From: Chitinophagales bacterium
GTDB taxonomy: Bacteria > Bacteroidota > Bacteroidia > Chitinophagales > JADIYW01
Direction: 5' to 3'
DNA: 64,000 bases
Assembly: GCA_023957215.1 (NCBI GenBank)
Contig: JAMLHH010000006.1
Location: forward strand, 46,244-110,243
The translations under genes were made by a program, and so were the position numbers. The number at the start of each line of letters is the position of its first letter. Positions within the stretch are counted from its first letter, which is position 1. Below are positions 25,128-30,280 of this stretch, one piece after another. The notes beneath the pieces are model-generated. The model did no database searches. It saw nothing but the letters and a program-made list of their open reading frames with translations, and was not told the DNA's origin.

Positions 25128-26000
25128 ATGAAAACAAACTCAAACATCTTAAAAGCATTGTTCCTTTCTACAGGATTGCTCGCTTTTGGCATTCAAAATA
25201 GTGATGCTCAAAAGTTGAAAACACCTACTCCGAGCCCACATCAAACCTTGACACAGGAGTTTGCACTTTCTCAAATCGAAATAGATTATTCAAGACCGAG
25301 TGCAAAGGGTAGAACCATCTTTGGTGATTTAGTGCCTTATGGAAAAGTATGGAGAACAGGTGCAAATGCTTCTACAACTATCGAATTTGGCGATGATGTG
25401 AAAGTCAATGGCAAAGAACTCAAAGCCGGAAAGTATGCTTTGTTTACCATTCCCGATAAAGATACTTGGAAAGTAAGTTTTTATAAGGATTTAAAATTAG
25501 GTGGTAATGTTGCTAACTATGATGAAAAAAATGAAGTGATTACAATAGAGGTGCCGGTGCAAAAAGTAGCTGACAAAGTAGAAACTTTTACCATTTCGGT
25601 AGATAATCTTACAGACACCAAAGCGATGGTTAGTCTGACTTGGGAAAATACCCGCGTCTCTTTTGATGTCACGACAGAAATAGATGAGAGAATCATGACT
25701 GACATCAAAAATGTGATGGGAGACAACAAACCTTATGCGGTAGCAGCTTCCTACTATATGGATAATGGGAAAGATCTCAATCAAGCTTATGAATGGCTGC
25801 AAAAAGCTGTGGATAACGCACCTTATGCATATTGGCTGGCATACAGAAAAGCTAAGTTGGAATTGATGTTAGGACAATATCAAAAAGCAATTGAATCCGC
25901 AAATACAGCTAAAGCAAAAGCAGAAGAAGCTCAAAGTGCTGATTATGTAAAACTCAATAATGACTTAATCAGTGAAGCTAAAAGCAAATTGAAAAAATAA
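25128..26000 (+). CDS. DUF2911 domain protein with C-terminal TPR
   Basis: YSRPSAKGR, LVPYGKVWRTGAN, GKYALFTIP. Confidence 0.88.
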   Translation: MKTNSNILKALFLSTGLLAFGIQNSDAQKLKTPTPSPHQTLTQEFALSQIEIDYSRPSAKGRTIFGDLVPYGKVWRTGANASTTIEFGDDVKVNGKELKAGKYALFTIPDKDTWKVSFYKDLKLGGNVANYDEKNEVITIEVPVQKVADKVETFTISVDNLTDTKAMVSLTWENTRVSFDVTTEIDERIMTDIKNVMGDNKPYAVAASYYMDNGKDLNQAYEWLQKAVDNAPYAYWLAYRKAKLELMLGQYQKAIESANTAKAKAEEAQSADYVKLNNDLISEAKSKLKK

Positions 26001-26017
26001 TTGTTACAACAAATCAT

Positions 26018-26055
26018 CATAAAAAAAGCTACTCGGATGAGTAGCTTTTTTTATG
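26018..26055. terminator. Bidirectional rho-independent terminator
   Basis: CATAAAAAAAGCTACTC-GGAT-GAGTAGCTTTTTTTATG perfect hairpin between convergent genes. Confidence 0.92.
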
Positions 26056-26073: not shown

Positions 26074-27237
26074 TTAGTAAACCGGCAGACTCAATTTTAA
26101 TTCACCAATATAACCTATAATACCACCTTTCAGATTGTACAAATTGTCAAAACCATATTGAGAAGTCAATAAATCAATTGCTCTGGCACTACGTCCACCT
26201 GCTTTACAGTGTACGACTACCGGTCTGTTTCTATCTATTTCATCAATATGAGATTCTAATGAACTAAGTGGAATCAATTTTGCACCAATATTGACCAAAT
26301 CATACTCATCTTGCTCTCTGACATCAATGACTTGAATATCTCTCTTTTCATCTAACCACTCTTGCAATTCAGATGGAGTGATTTCTTTGATTTGAGATTT
26401 CTTTTCTGCTAATTGAGGAATACCACAGAAGAAATCATAGTCGATAAGTTTTGTCTGTGTTGGATTGTCACCTGTCAAAGGATTGTTTGGATCTTTATGT
26501 ACTTTGAATACTCTTGTAGTAAATCCAAGTGCATCAAAAGTGAATAGTCTTCCACTCAATACATCACCTACACCTAAGATGATTTTAATCACTTCATTGG
26601 TTTGAATACATCCCATCAATCCCGGCAATACACCAAGTACACCACCTTCCGCACAACTGGGAACTAATCCCGGAGGTGGAGGAGTAGGGTAGAGGTCTCT
26701 ATAATTAGGTCCGTTTTTATAATTAAATACAGAAGCTTGACCATCAAACCTATAAATAGATGCATATACGTTAGGAATACCCAATAGCACACAAGCATCA
26801 TTCACTAAATATCTGGTAGGAAAGTTATCAGTACCATCAGCTACTACATCATAATCTTTGAAAATCTCTAATGCATTCTGACTGGATAACTTTTCATTAT
26901 AGGTAATGACATTAATATATGGATTGAGAGATAAGACTCTGTCTCTCGCTGCTTCCACTTTTAACCTTCCGATGTCATTCATGCTAAAAAGCACCTGTCT
27001 TTGCAAGTTGCTGTCATCTACGACATCAAAATCTATCAAACCGATAGTTCCCACACCGGCTGCTGCGAGATACAACAGTGCAGGGCTACCCAAACCACCG
27101 GCACCTATGATTAAAACTCTCGCATTTTTTAATTTTTTCTGACCTTCAAGACCTACTTCGGGTATGATAATATGTCTTGAATATTTGGCTAACTCTTTTT
27201 GAGTCAACTCAATTTCTTCTAAGTTTTTTCTTTCCAT
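26074..27237 (-). CDS. moeB: E1-like adenylyltransferase/sulfurtransferase with rhodanese domain (MoeZ/MoeB type)
   Basis: YSRH, GAGGLG, SNLQRQ, DGTDNF, NYRDLYP..PSCAEGGVLG, rhodanese CKAGGRS. Confidence 0.92.
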   Translation of the reverse strand: MERKNLEEIELTQKELAKYSRHIIIPEVGLEGQKKLKNARVLIIGAGGLGSPALLYLAAAGVGTIGLIDFDVVDDSNLQRQVLFSMNDIGRLKVEAARDRVLSLNPYINVITYNEKLSSQNALEIFKDYDVVADGTDNFPTRYLVNDACVLLGIPNVYASIYRFDGQASVFNYKNGPNYRDLYPTPPPPGLVPSCAEGGVLGVLPGLMGCIQTNEVIKIILGVGDVLSGRLFTFDALGFTTRVFKVHKDPNNPLTGDNPTQTKLIDYDFFCGIPQLAEKKSQIKEITPSELQEWLDEKRDIQVIDVREQDEYDLVNIGAKLIPLSSLESHIDEIDRNRPVVVHCKAGGRSARAIDLLTSQYGFDNLYNLKGGIIGYIGELKLSLPVY

Positions 27238-27248
27238 TTCCTTAAAAT

Positions 27249-27527
27249 TTATGCCACACCGCCGGCAATTGCAGGAATCAAACTAACGATAGTGTCTTCT
27301 TTGATTTCAGTTTGTTCGTTATTTAAAAAACGGATGTCTTCTTCACCAACAAAAACTTTGATAAAGTGTCTTAATTTTCCGTTTGTATCCAAAATCTGAT
27401 TGCTGATTTTAGGATGTGTTTCAGTCAAAGCTTTTACAGCTTCTTCAATAGTAGTCGCATTCGTTACGAAATTAGCTTCTCCATCAGTATATTTTCTCAG
27501 TGGAGTAGGAATAATAAGTGTTGCCAT
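27249..27527 (-). CDS. MoaD/ThiS/CysO-family ubiquitin-like sulfur carrier with a C-terminal GG-VA extension
   Basis: IPTPLRKYTDG...EDIRFL...LIPAIAGG then VA-stop. Confidence 0.9.
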   Translation of the reverse strand: MATLIIPTPLRKYTDGEANFVTNATTIEEAVKALTETHPKISNQILDTNGKLRHFIKVFVGEEDIRFLNNEQTEIKEDTIVSLIPAIAGGVA

Positions 27528-27796: not shown

Positions 27797-28216
27797 TCAT
27801 TTCAGTTCTTCCGGTTCAAATTGAAACTCAGTTTCAGATAATCTCCAAGAAGTCAAAACATCAGATTTGCCGTCCATGACCGATACAATGATATAAGAGA
27901 AAAAAGGCACTGCCTGTTTCAAATCATGTTCGGATGGTTTTGCTGGATGCTGAGGGTGCGAGTGATACACCCCTATCAAAGTGATGTCTTGTTCCAAAGC
28001 ATACTTTTCAGCCCTCATATAATCCAAAGGTGAGATTTCAAATCTACGTCTTTGATCTCCTTCTTTGCTATTGATGATAGGACGAGCCAGCTTTATAAAA
28101 CGCTGTCCATCCTTTTCATGTCCGTATAAAAAACCTACACATTCATTTGGAAAATCTTCCTCACCATGCTGGCGTATGACTTTTTCGGCTTCTTTACTTA
28201 AACTTGTATTATACAT
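27797..28216 (-). CDS. M67 JAMM/Mov34 metallopeptidase (Mec-like)
   Basis: PNECVG and YHSHPQHPAKPSEHD JAMM motif. Confidence 0.92.
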   Translation of the reverse strand: MYNTSLSKEAEKVIRQHGEEDFPNECVGFLYGHEKDGQRFIKLARPIINSKEGDQRRRFEISPLDYMRAEKYALEQDITLIGVYHSHPQHPAKPSEHDLKQAVPFFSYIIVSVMDGKSDVLTSWRLSETEFQFEPEELK

Positions 28217-29168
28217 TTTGTATTTGTTGTAATATTTCTGGGTAATTAGATGCGTGGTCGGGACAAATGGTTACGATGACACCCATATTGATTGTTTCCG
28301 CTACTTTCAAAGTGCCTGCGACATTGGCTGCTGATGAAGGACTCAATAAAACACCACTCTCTTTTGCCACTCTTCTAATCATATCATAAGATTCAAAAGT
28401 GTCAATTGTAAGATGTTGATCGGCTAAGTGTCCATCATAAATCAAAGGAATTTTTGCACTTTCCATGTGTTTCCAACCTTCCAAACCATGCATGGCGCTA
28501 TCCGGTTGTAATTCTATTAGTGAAATAAAAGGATTTAATTCTTTTAATCTACGGGAAGTTCCCACAAAAGTGCCACTTGTCCCCACACCTGATACAAAGT
28601 GAGTCACTTCGCCTTTGGTTTGTTGCCATATTTCTAATGCAGTACCATTGTAATGCGCTTTCCAATTGTTGTCATTTGCATACTGGTTCGTATAAAAATA
28701 TTTTTCGGGATGCAGGTTGGAAAGTTCTTTTGCTTTTTCTTGAGCTTCGTCTGTCGTTCCAAACTTTGAAGTATATACGATTTCTGATCCCAAAGCTTTC
28801 AATGAAGAAAGTTTTTGCTGGGAGGCATTTTCGGGAACACAAAGCGTAACAGGTATTCCAATATGGGTGCCGATACTTGCATAAGCGACGGCAGTATTGC
28901 CACTGGAAGCATCGATGATACCTTTTTGGTAGTTGATAAGACCGGATTTATATGCTTCCAAGATAATATTGTAGGCAGCACGCGCTTTCACAGAGTTAGA
29001 AAGTTGGTTCCATTCTAACTTAGCGTAAATCTTAACCTTCGGATTTTTCTGTAAATGACTAAAGTCAAAAAGTGGCGTATTGCCAATAAAATTTGACAAG
29101 TTTTCTAACTTTTTCCAAACACTGTCTGTCTTAGTTTTTGTCAATGTGTCCGTTTCTCTTTCGTCCAT
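28209..29168 (-). CDS. PLP-dependent cysteine synthase family protein (CysM-like, probably sulfur-carrier dependent)
   Basis: IGNTPL, SVK (PLP lysine), ASSGNT, NQYAN, GVGTSGT, HGLEG; shares an operon with JAMM, carrier and E1 genes. Confidence 0.88.
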   Translation of the reverse strand: MDERETDTLTKTKTDSVWKKLENLSNFIGNTPLFDFSHLQKNPKVKIYAKLEWNQLSNSVKARAAYNIILEAYKSGLINYQKGIIDASSGNTAVAYASIGTHIGIPVTLCVPENASQQKLSSLKALGSEIVYTSKFGTTDEAQEKAKELSNLHPEKYFYTNQYANDNNWKAHYNGTALEIWQQTKGEVTHFVSGVGTSGTFVGTSRRLKELNPFISLIELQPDSAMHGLEGWKHMESAKIPLIYDGHLADQHLTIDTFESYDMIRRVAKESGVLLSPSSAANVAGTLKVAETINMGVIVTICPDHASNYPEILQQIQNV

Positions 29169-29180
29169 TTTATTTCAAAT

Positions 29181-29209
29181 AAAAAAAGCCCCGCTTTTGA
29201 CGAGGCTTT
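29181..29209 (-). terminator. Attenuator terminator in the 5' leader of the cysteine synthase operon
   Basis: Minus strand AAAGCCTCG-TCAAAAG-CGGGGCTTTTTTT, ending 12 nt before the ATG. Confidence 0.82.
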
Positions 29210-29231
29210 AAAATATTTATTCTTTCTTACT

Positions 29232-29303
29232 TTATATGCCTCTTCTATCTGTTGTTATACAACAGCAACAAGTATTTGCTATTACTTTCAACATTTGAAG
29301 CAT
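29232..29303 (-). CDS. Cys-rich leader peptide MLQMLKVIANTCCCCITTDRRGI
   Basis: ATG at 29303; TGT TGC TGT TGT at codons 12-15; TAA at 29232-29234; lies immediately upstream of the terminator and cysteine synthase. Confidence 0.82.
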   Translation of the reverse strand: MLQMLKVIANTCCCCITTDRRGI

Positions 29304-29307
29304 AATG

Positions 29308-29315
29308 CAAATATA
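29308..29315 (-). promoter_or_regulatory. -7 promoter box of the cys leader
   Basis: TATATTTG, 4 nt before the leader ATG. Confidence 0.65.
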
Positions 29316-29398: not shown

Positions 29399-30280
29399 CT
29401 AATTGCGGATATCTTCTCCCCACATGAGTTTGTGTCTAAGCGTATGTATATATGAATTTTCGTGCAATCTGAGCAGTTTGAAAGTAAAAGCTTCTTTTCT
29501 TACAGCGATTTTAAAACTTTCATCTACTTTTTCATATCTTGAATCGATAGAACACAAATAATTATTAGATCTTGTTTCTACTTCAAAAGACAGAATGGAA
29601 GTGTCGGGAACGACTAAAGGGCGGGCATTCAAATTGTGTGGCGCAACAGGTGTCAAGACAAAAGCATTGGCTATCGGCATGATAATCGGCCCGTTACAGC
29701 TTAATGAATAGGCAGTAGAACCGGTAGGGGTGGCAACGATAAGGCCATCTGCCCAAAATGAATTGAGAAACTCACCATTTAGATAAGTATGTACGACTAT
29801 CATAGAAGAAGTATCTGTCTTATGAAGTGTTACTTCATTGAGCCCAAAGTTTAAATCACCGAAAATTCCATTATCCGATGCATCTACATGCAACAAGACT
29901 CTTTCTTCAATGTCATAAATGTGGTTGTGAATTGCATGGATGAGATTGTCCGTTTTTTCTTTTTGAATATCCGCCAAAAATCCCAAGCGTCCATCATTGA
30001 TAGCTGCCACAGGAATATTACTGTCTCTGATAAATTTGACACAATCGAGTATCGTGCCGTCTCCACCGATAGAGATTAGTATATCAGCTTGATGATGTAA
30101 ATCTTCATGTGTGTTAAAAAGTGAAAGAGGTGGAATATCTTTGACAATGTCCTTAAATGAATGATAATAAGGTTCATATACGACAAGTTGATATCCAAGA
30201 TGATATAACTTATTTAAGAGTTCAGGCAAATAGGGTAAATGCGACTCTTTGAAAACCCTGCTATATATTGCAATATTCAT
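29399..30280 (-). CDS. nadK: NAD kinase
   Basis: GGDGT, GRLGFL, NE, DGLIVATPTGSTAYSLS. Confidence 0.95.
   Translation of the reverse strand: MNIAIYSRVFKESHLPYLPELLNKLYHLGYQLVVYEPYYHSFKDIVKDIPPLSLFNTHEDLHHQADILISIGGDGTILDCVKFIRDSNIPVAAINDGRLGFLADIQKEKTDNLIHAIHNHIYDIEERVLLHVDASDNGIFGDLNFGLNEVTLHKTDTSSMIVVHTYLNGEFLNSFWADGLIVATPTGSTAYSLSCNGPIIMPIANAFVLTPVAPHNLNARPLVVPDTSILSFEVETRSNNYLCSIDSRYEKVDESFKIAVRKEAFTFKLLRLHENSYIHTLRHKLMWGEDIRN

Follow-up and report, generated by a model that had tools for sequence, protein, structure and literature searches.

The 64,000-nucleotide stretch of Chitinophagales DNA analysed here (the window) carries on its minus strand a leader that encodes a small peptide with four consecutive cysteines, ends in an intrinsic terminator and stands before an operon of cysM-mec-cysO-moeZ type. 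We consider it likely that this leader is a transcription attenuator mediated by the ribosome, by which the supply of cysteinyl-tRNA (Cys-tRNA) is sensed and the operon is controlled. Comparison with related genomes indicates that the element is real and conserved, and it is probably an undescribed leader-peptide attenuator. As far as the sequence tells, it combines what one would look for in such a regulator, namely a short open reading frame (sORF) enriched in Cys codons, a terminator, an antiterminator that cannot coexist with that terminator, and cysteine-related genes downstream.

A sequence-only reading of this DNA had described, in this order, a promoter box, an sORF, a Cys run, a terminator and a cysteine synthase gene, and each of them was found at the position it had given (Table 1). 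Only 4 nt (CATT) lie between the -7 box and the ATG of the sORF at 29303, and 12 nt between the terminator and the ATG of the cysM-like gene at 29168. The terminator stem occupies 29209-29185, with G-C in 5 of its 10 pairs, and the T run extends to 29181. Upstream, the NAD kinase gene is followed by an A+T-rich spacer of 95 nt. The whole leader (151 nt) folds more stably than all of 200 dinucleotide-shuffled sequences (z = -4.31), and its minimum free energy (MFE) fold pairs the 5'-terminal AUGCUUC with GAGGCAU while keeping the terminator. An Rfam scan of the window leader returned no family at threshold; the sub-threshold scores were for Phe_leader (25.3 against 55 bits) and Trp_leader (20.2 against 41). 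Among 7 sequencing runs retrieved for this DNA, none was recorded as RNA, and the best DNA run contained 0.23 of the sampled sequence words.

Table 1. Features of the leader, of the operon and its surroundings, and of two further leader loci in the same genome (positions are those of the window unless a contig is named).
Feature	Position	Strand	Basis or remark
-7 promoter box TATATTTG, Bacteroidota sigma-A type	29308..29315	-	sequence read; predicts transcription start at 29303
Leader sORF, 23 codons and stop, MLQMLKVIANTCCCCITTDRRGI	29232..29303	-	predicted leaderless
Candidate region 1, 5'-terminal AUGCUUC, pairs with GAGGCAU	29297..29303	-	MFE fold of full leader
Four consecutive Cys codons (TGT TGC TGT TGT)	29259..29270	-	proposed sensing site
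CTGTTGT/ACAACAG hairpin, 7 pairs, last Cys codons and ACAACAG	29249..29265	-	-7.0 kcal/mol
Region 2, antiterminator 5' strand, core GAGGC 29242-29238	29228..29245	-	nascent-RNA fold
Region 3, antiterminator 3' strand, core GCCTC 29206-29202	29199..29215	-	overlaps terminator 5' arm
Intrinsic terminator, 10-pair stem, 5-nt loop, 7 T	29181..29209	-	-13.6 kcal/mol
cysM-like PLP (pyridoxal phosphate)-dependent cysteine synthase gene, first of operon	28209..29168	-	Pfam PALP, E = 2.9e-62
JAB/MPN metalloprotease gene, Mec-like	27797..28216	-	Pfam Prok-JAB, E = 2.6e-23
ThiS/MoaD-fold sulfur carrier gene, CysO-like	27249..27527	-	Pfam ThiS
ThiF-type adenylyltransferase and rhodanese fusion gene, MoeZ-like	26074..27237	-	Pfam ThiF and Rhodanese
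Operon-end terminator, strong, 17-pair stem	26018..26055	-	terminator search
NAD kinase gene, upstream neighbour	29399-30280	-	Pfam NAD_kinase
Two tandem Cys leaders, own genome	contig C34 24251-24561 (element to 25364; L109:1250-2416)		outside window
Met/Cys-rich leader MKKTMNCQMCMMYIQDV, terminator, antiterminator overlapping stop	contig C23 92937-93044	-	own genome, L113

A Cys run alone is weak evidence, because runs of at least four TGY codons are not rare in the genome to which the window belongs: over both strands and all frames of its 2.88 Mb there are 7, where composition predicts about 3.9. On the comparative evidence, it is the position and conservation of the run, and not the run itself, that set the feature apart from chance. 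We gathered cysM orthologs from 61 related genomes, 26 of which gave a match, and from a collection of species-representative genomes, whose 80 named loci belong for the most part to uncultured Chitinophagales, Saprospiraceae, Cytophagales families and Chitinophagaceae, and some to cultured strains. Removal of duplicates, of loci with less than 300 nt upstream and of those below 45% CysM identity reduced the 107 loci to 86. In each, the 500 nt upstream of cysM were read for a run of three or more Cys codons with an intrinsic terminator 8-150 nt beyond it, the filter for which demanded a T run after the stem. A short ORF with a run of 3-8 Cys codons (median 5) and a terminator were found together at 65 of the 86 loci. 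The run of at least three was present at 71, so that its persistence in relatives, on which the sequence-only reading had staked its proposal, holds; the chance of such a run in 500 nt is about 2% (217 runs in 2 x 2.88 Mb), and 17 of these 217 runs in the own genome have a terminator within 150 nt. When the six loci with a run but no terminator by the filter were inspected by eye, three showed long-loop terminators, one had been shortened by a misset start, and the two from Balneolaceae had none.

Carriers of the element are found in Chitinophagales, Saprospiraceae, Cytophagales and other groups, and include the cultured Flexithrix dorotheae, Saprospira grandis, Niastella vici, Splendidivirga corallicola and Agaribacillus aureus. 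The leader peptides share only their cysteines and range from 8 to about 40 residues in length. Their Cys runs are in frame with an upstream start and near a stop, the exception being 9 run entries in 8 loci without an in-frame ATG. When 54 leaders were aligned with MAFFT, conservation was confined to the columns of the Cys run and of the terminator. Each of the nine base pairs in the terminator consensus has undergone compensatory change among these 54 loci, and the T columns after its stem are at least 90% conserved.

Two variations on this arrangement were seen. At several loci, tandem modules of Cys leader and terminator precede a single operon (L042, L045, L049, L059, L065, L076, L089 and L097, mostly Saprospiraceae; further cases are L117, L119, L134 and L144). 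Attenuators in tandem would sharpen the response, as tandem riboswitches do. The two Balneolaceae loci (L077 and L090) have 7-8 consecutive Cys codons before cysM and no canonical stem and T run by eye; their mechanism may differ, for instance through Rho-dependent or translational control.

An attenuator needs, besides the terminator, a strand that competes for it. Folding of the nascent RNA as far as the terminator loop predicts a helix of 14 pairs with interruptions, in which RNA positions 59-60, 62-66 and 70-76 pair with 89-95, 98-102 and 104-105 (29245-29228 with 29215-29199 in window coordinates); its energy is -10.6 kcal/mol, compared with -13.6 for the terminator. The 5' strand of this antiterminator, region 2, overlaps the final codons and the stop codon of the sORF. 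The sequence-only reading had proposed a GAGGC/GCCTC antiterminator: the complementarity is present, with GAGGC in codons 21-22 of the sORF, but the predicted helix is the larger one just described. The duplex between region 2 and the terminator arm in the window amounts to -10.0 kcal/mol, a value reached by 1% of shuffles.

Support for the antiterminator also comes from comparison among loci. The terminator core varies by lineage (CCTCAC, CCTCGC, CCTTTC, CTCCAC and ten further types), and region 2 changes alongside it (for example GGTGAGG, GCGAGGT, GGAAAGG and GTGGAG). Since the MAFFT alignment misaligns region 2 between terminator classes, we relied on permutation tests, in which, for each locus, the sequence following the Cys run was matched with the terminator 5' arm to find the best duplex, and the arms were then permuted among loci. 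As the best duplex was picked afresh in the controls, selection bias is equal on both sides. The loci's own duplexes averaged -10.66 kcal/mol, as against -8.16 +/- 0.27 for permuted ones, and none of 10,000 permutations reached the observed value (65 loci). Related sequences inflate a test of this kind, and a second one was therefore run with one representative for each of the 14 terminator-core classes; it gave -9.01 versus -6.89 +/- 0.56 kcal/mol, with a median p < 0.0005 and a maximum p of 0.022 over 300 draws. By both tests, the strand that pairs with the terminator 5' arm changes along with the arm, which is the co-variation that the sequence-only reading had called for.

The spacing of these parts is similar to that of the trp and his attenuators. 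Among the 65 loci, the median distance from the last Cys codon to the start of region 2 is 13 nt (interquartile range 11-18), and that from the end of region 2 to the stop codon downstream of it is 1 nt (-5 to +8); the median distances from stop to terminator arm and from terminator to the ATG of the structural gene are 29 and 24 nt. In the window, region 2 starts 13 nt after the Cys codons if the outer pairs are counted, and its GAGGC core 16 nt after them. A ribosome protects roughly 15 nt of messenger on either side of its P site. With a Cys codon in the A site, it would thus cover the RNA to about position 55 at most and leave region 2 clear, whereas at the stop codon (RNA positions 70-72) it would cover region 2. 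The ribosome-stall switch that had been proposed from sequence is, as far as its geometry goes, consistent with these distances.

One could picture the switch as follows; the steps that we infer are that the sORF is translated, that the ribosome stalls, that transcription terminates and that the system responds to cysteine. Transcription would start at, or beside, the A of the sORF ATG, with no 5' untranslated region, and a ribosome would trail the polymerase. With ample Cys-tRNA, the ribosome would reach the stop codon and cover region 2, the terminator would fold, and transcription would stop 12 nt before cysM. With scarce Cys-tRNA, the ribosome would stall on the four Cys codons and leave region 2 free to pair with the terminator 5' arm as soon as the latter is made, so that the polymerase would read into the operon.

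A hairpin over the last Cys codons, also part of the sequence-only reading, is indeed present in the window (arms 29265-29259 and 29255-29249), but it is predicted only in six loci of the same genus (-1.3 to -7.0 kcal/mol) and not in other genera. It may be a pause signal.

The start of the transcript deserves separate comment. In Flavobacterium psychrophilum, the TAnnTTTG -7 box spans positions -12 to -5 (PMC9723704), which, carried over to the window, would make the A of the sORF ATG position +1. The predicted leaderless start that had been read from the sequence fits this spacing, and a box 4-7 nt before an in-frame sORF start is kept in 15 of the 20 loci of the window's family, compared with 2 of the 45 other loci. 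The leaderless form is therefore better regarded as a trait of this family than as a property of all such elements. The family would offer a naturally occurring example in which attenuation is coupled to a leaderless mRNA, and this in a phylum whose translation initiation is unusual.

Several observations weigh against this interpretation, either as a whole or in some of its parts. Relatedness among the loci makes the p values given above overstate independence, an effect that the class-level test lessens and does not remove. The GAGGC/GCCUC core comprises 5 pairs and yields -6.4 kcal/mol on its own, so that the figure of -10.6 requires weak A-U and G-U extensions. The default state is ambiguous: ribosome-free nascent RNA, up to the terminator loop, prefers the antiterminator, unlike the MFE fold of the full leader. 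Fifteen of the 86 orthologous loci have no Cys run; visual inspection showed dispersed Cys codons and a terminator in at least two of them, and in several cysM lies right behind another gene. No general region 1, moreover, was found, in the sense of a partner that would sequester region 2. In the window a candidate duplex of -7.8 kcal/mol exists (p = 0.015 against shuffles), but p <= 0.05 was obtained at 15 of 65 loci (median z -0.54) and the position of the partner varies among loci. The window's own partner, at the 5' end, lies 25-33 nt before the first Cys codon, too far upstream to be under a ribosome stalled on the Cys codons. One genus does have the textbook 1:2/2:3/3:4 layout, with CTTACC right after the Cys codons pairing with GGTGAG. 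Finally, leaderless transcripts are scarce where they have been counted in the phylum: they make up only 5.5% of mRNAs in F. psychrophilum (PMC9723704), and leaders shorter than 10 nt only 3.7% in the Bacteroides thetaiotaomicron transcriptome.

Of the probability that we withhold from transcription attenuation, the larger part falls to the same sensor working by translation alone. In that version, the hairpin before cysM would block access of the ribosome and would be opened or closed by the ribosome on the sORF, with termination playing no part. Bacteroidota initiate translation without Shine-Dalgarno sequences and rely on unstructured start regions, a habit that would favor such a device, and the hairpin is close to the ATG (12 nt in the window, a median of 24 nt in relatives). 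That Shine-Dalgarno sequences are lacking is noted in PMC9723704, and the poly-Cys sORFs of mycobacteria do act at translation (bioRxiv 10.1101/834739). Occlusion, however, needs no T run, whereas one always follows the hairpin (it was also a criterion of the filter) and its columns are at least 90% conserved. Likewise, the distance from hairpin to ATG ranges from 4 to more than 200 nt, which suits a terminator better than a mask over the start site. We regard exclusively translational control as improbable, although termination and translational effects could act together. It is less probable still that the regulator is something other than a ribosome, be it a protein that binds RNA, a small RNA or an RNA that binds a metabolite, with the Cys codons being incidental or acting as a UGY binding motif. 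UGY repeats could in principle be recognized by a protein; yet the runs lie in frame between a start and a nearby stop (apart from the 9 entries mentioned), the stop codon adjoins region 2, and before other operons the runs are broken by Met or other codons and nevertheless stay in frame. A riboswitch is disfavored because only the Cys run and the terminator are conserved, with no further RNA core and no Rfam family at threshold.

The two other explanations deny the leader a sensing role. Four to eight adjacent cysteines could bind metals, and the position of the peptide gene is conserved; the sORF might then encode a functional Cys-rich peptide (metal-binding, redox-active or the precursor of a modified peptide), and the hairpin would be a leaky intergenic terminator. 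We find this very hard to reconcile with peptides that have no shared sequence outside the Cys run and differ so much in length, with a complementarity between region 2 and terminator that has no role in such a scheme, and with the occurrence of the same kind of sORF before several unrelated sulfur-assimilation genes and a tRNA-Cys gene. Least credible of all, and close to negligible in our estimate, is that an ORF arose by chance in the operon's 5' region, beside the ordinary terminator of the upstream NAD kinase gene. The frequency of four-TGY runs in this genome speaks for such an accident, as does the fact that a covariance model built from the leaders matches mostly generic terminators. 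Against it, the element is conserved at 65 of 86 loci whose upstream genes differ, region 2 co-varies with the terminator arm, and in the window the terminator lies 190 nt past the NAD kinase stop and behind a promoter box. Descent from one recent mobile segment is in turn argued against by protein identities of 50-72% and by the differing terminators. An attenuator that reads Cys-tRNA through the ribosome thus continues to be the interpretation that we favor.

The classical attenuators of the trp and his operons comprise an sORF with codons for the end product, a terminator, and an antiterminator strand that competes for the terminator 5' arm. Like those of Escherichia coli trp and Salmonella his, the leader described here has its regulatory codons and its terminator before the first gene, an antiterminator at the end of the sORF and an antiterminator somewhat weaker than the terminator. 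Unlike them, it concerns cysteine, belongs to Bacteroidota, has its sORF at the predicted first base of the transcript (in the window's family) and has no generally recognizable region 1. It is not a member of the Rfam families Trp_leader or Phe_leader, with which it shares no sequence similarity and for which its scores fall below the gathering thresholds. The element therefore joins a well-known kind of regulator, with a familiar mechanism, and does not constitute a new kind.

A closer analogy, as regards what is sensed, exists with the mycobacteria. There, leaderless poly-Cys sORFs before cysteine-related operons sense charged tRNA-Cys by stalling (Canestrari et al., bioRxiv 10.1101/834739). 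These leaders have no terminator; their Cys tract base-pairs with the Shine-Dalgarno region of the gene that follows, and the same work showed that they act on translation. Leader peptides with Cys runs and without a terminator had been predicted earlier in Actinobacteria (Seliverstov et al. 2005, PMC1262725). Consecutive Cys codons, a predicted leaderless start and the proposed sensing of Cys-tRNA are shared with the element in the window. The latter differs in having a canonical terminator and antiterminator, in the local pairing of its Cys codons with ACAACAG, and in belonging to a phylum, Bacteroidota, that does not use Shine-Dalgarno sequences. To judge from the sequence, the window element works like the mycobacterial sORFs in what it senses but is not a member of their group, and it may be viewed as their terminator-based counterpart. 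The likeness is most simply explained by convergence, because the phyla are unrelated.

Attenuation by leader peptides is not foreign to Bacteroidota, as the Bacteroid-trp motif is an example of it. In F. psychrophilum, "strong clues for leader peptide attenuation" were reported before amino acid operons (PMC9723704), and in Bacteroides the mechanism has been suspected (PMC7366714), with cysteine unnamed in the text. Phylum and general mechanism are thus the same as here; the relevant passages of PMC9723704 name no cysteine leader, although one may already be included in its supplement (Table S7, Appendix D9). With regard to cysteine, it was stated in 2020 that attenuation mediated by an upstream ORF (uORF) had not yet been described (bioRxiv 10.1101/834739). 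A year later, a terminator-based uORF with two Cys codons, uORFC-8-2, was predicted before cysS in Rhodobacterales (Brewer et al. 2021, PMC8632094). As described there, it resembles the present element in that ribosome-mediated attenuation is predicted, the uORF contains Cys codons, and a U run accompanies the terminator stem. It differs in that its Cys codons are two, as opposed to 3-8, and lie inside the first stem, in that it controls cysteinyl-tRNA synthetase rather than the making of cysteine, and in its restriction to one alphaproteobacterial order. The Rfam scan of the window gave no match to uORFC-8-2, a motif that is perhaps outside Rfam.

Full-text searches, which covered the main texts of openly accessible papers, turned up no description of a Cys leader in Bacteroidota, nor of one that precedes genes of CysO type or those for sulfite reductase or tRNA-Cys. 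The main text of Weinberg et al. 2017 (PMC5737381) does not contain cysteine, uORF, leader peptide or Bacteroidetes as words, Naville and Gautheret 2010 (PMC2965389) have cysteine in the reference list only, and in PMC13613805 cysteine synthase appears only as an example for 3' terminators. The novelty that the sequence-only reading had claimed must accordingly be narrowed: in these searches no cysteine attenuator was found described for Bacteroidota or for operons of cysteine biosynthesis, but a Cys uORF of the terminator type had already been predicted in the form of uORFC-8-2. The interest of the element resides in its breadth within a phylum whose sulfur regulation is poorly charted, in its leaderless form, in its tandem copies and in its link to tRNA-Cys and a peroxiredoxin.

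The genes that follow the leader encode proteins with PALP, JAB, ThiS and ThiF/rhodanese domains. CysM, Mec, CysO and MoeZ constitute a route of cysteine synthesis in Mycobacterium tuberculosis, and domains and gene order of the operon match this set, in agreement with the CysO-type pathway that had been assigned to it. The gene names are taken from domains and gene order only, because the NCBIfam equivalog cut-offs were not reached: the best models for the cysM-like gene, cysM and cysKM, both scored under theirs, as did MoeB and MoeZ for the MoeZ-like gene. The translated CysO-like carrier has the C-terminus ...AGGVA, a GG motif followed by two residues. No gene with a NIR_SIR (sulfite/nitrite reductase) domain was detected in the own genome, which is rated 100% complete, and the organism may depend on reduced sulfur supplied through the MoeZ/CysO carrier route.

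Leaders of the same type occur before other genes as well. The covariance model, built from 54 leaders, was used to generate leads only; as a census tool it was rejected, since it is dominated by the terminator and matched 124 of 151 genomes of the class (E <= 0.01). These 151 include one genome flagged as unpublished (G153), which enters the analysis only through such counts. Most inspected matches without a Cys run were ordinary gene 3' ends. In the own genome, it led to two tandem Cys leaders on another contig (C34 in Table 1), with peptides ending in ...SCCCMCMMPSGI and ...NCYCCCCCMTIQRHCRI, each having its own terminator and a predicted antiterminator beside the stop codon. Behind them lie a divergent second tRNA-Cys(GCA) gene and, after it, a gene for a 1-Cys peroxiredoxin. 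The other tRNA-Cys gene of the genome (C17:14156-14227) is preceded by a plain promoter. It is unusual for a tRNA gene to stand behind a leader-peptide attenuator, and we know of no precedent for a leader peptide controlling a tRNA gene and an antioxidant enzyme. Among 30 tRNA-Cys loci of relatives, one was under a Cys leader, and that one was the own genome's; of 20 peroxiredoxin orthologs, three had a Cys leader (the own genome and two of the same genus, L179 and L183) and 17 did not. In two distant genomes (L119 and L134), a 1-Cys peroxiredoxin gene also lies behind a Cys leader and is followed once by cysM and once by tRNA-Cys.

In other genomes, we inspected the 29 best non-own loci that the covariance model gave in 150 further Bacteroidia genomes. 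Thirteen have leaders with a run of at least three Cys codons: eight before sulfite reductase-like genes, two before 1-Cys peroxiredoxin genes (one with tRNA-Cys), and one each before an adenosine 5'-phosphosulfate (APS) kinase gene, a hexapeptide transferase gene beside a CysK-like gene, and a cysM operon; seven of these downstream genes were checked by Pfam and the rest by N-terminal similarity. Two more of the 29 have two adjacent Cys codons, and 14 are generic terminators or runs inside genes. For sulfite reductase, an unbiased sample was then drawn: the gene is present in 42 of the 151 class genomes, and the 30 best loci were taken. Half of them (15/30) show an upstream sORF with adjacent Cys codons and a terminator, compared with 0/30 in antisense and 4/352 in windows elsewhere in these loci. 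Cys and Met codons are mixed in many of the leaders. Cys or Cys/Met leaders with terminators before sulfite reductase, APS kinase or hexapeptide transferase/CysK-like genes were seen at L117, L120-L123, L125, L126, L132 and L135, and at L142, L144, L198, L206-L209, L211-L213, L216, L217, L220, L222, L225 and L226.

These distributions suggest a class-wide sulfur regulon run by leader peptides in Bacteroidia, that is, a testable cis-regulatory mechanism recurring across Chitinophagales, Saprospiraceae and Cytophagales and before other sulfur-assimilation genes of the class. One might go further and speculate, while leaning towards doubt, that poly-Cys and mixed Cys/Met leaders are the main sensor of sulfur amino acids in much of Bacteroidota, in place of transcription factors of the CysB or CymR type. 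The regulon would then include the CysO pathway, sulfite reductase, APS kinase, cysE/cysK-like genes, metY, 1-Cys peroxiredoxin and a second tRNA-Cys, often under tandem attenuators. Control of a tRNA gene and an antioxidant enzyme by such leaders would link the charging of tRNA-Cys to thiol and oxidative stress. On the practical side, the element can flag genes of the cysteine regulon in unannotated genomes, such as a CysO-type operon, a 1-Cys peroxiredoxin or a spare tRNA-Cys.

A further candidate in the own genome, possibly a methionine/cysteine attenuator, is the Met/Cys-rich leader on contig C23 (Table 1), which lies upstream of an O-acetylhomoserine sulfhydrylase-like (metY-like) gene with the Pfam domain Cys_Met_Meta_PP; our guess is that the ORF after this gene is metX-like. 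At the far end of the cysM-like operon, the stem at 26018-26055 is flanked by A and T stretches. The moeZ-like gene (minus strand) and a DUF2911 gene (plus strand, 25128-26000) converge on it from either side, and it is probably a bidirectional terminator.

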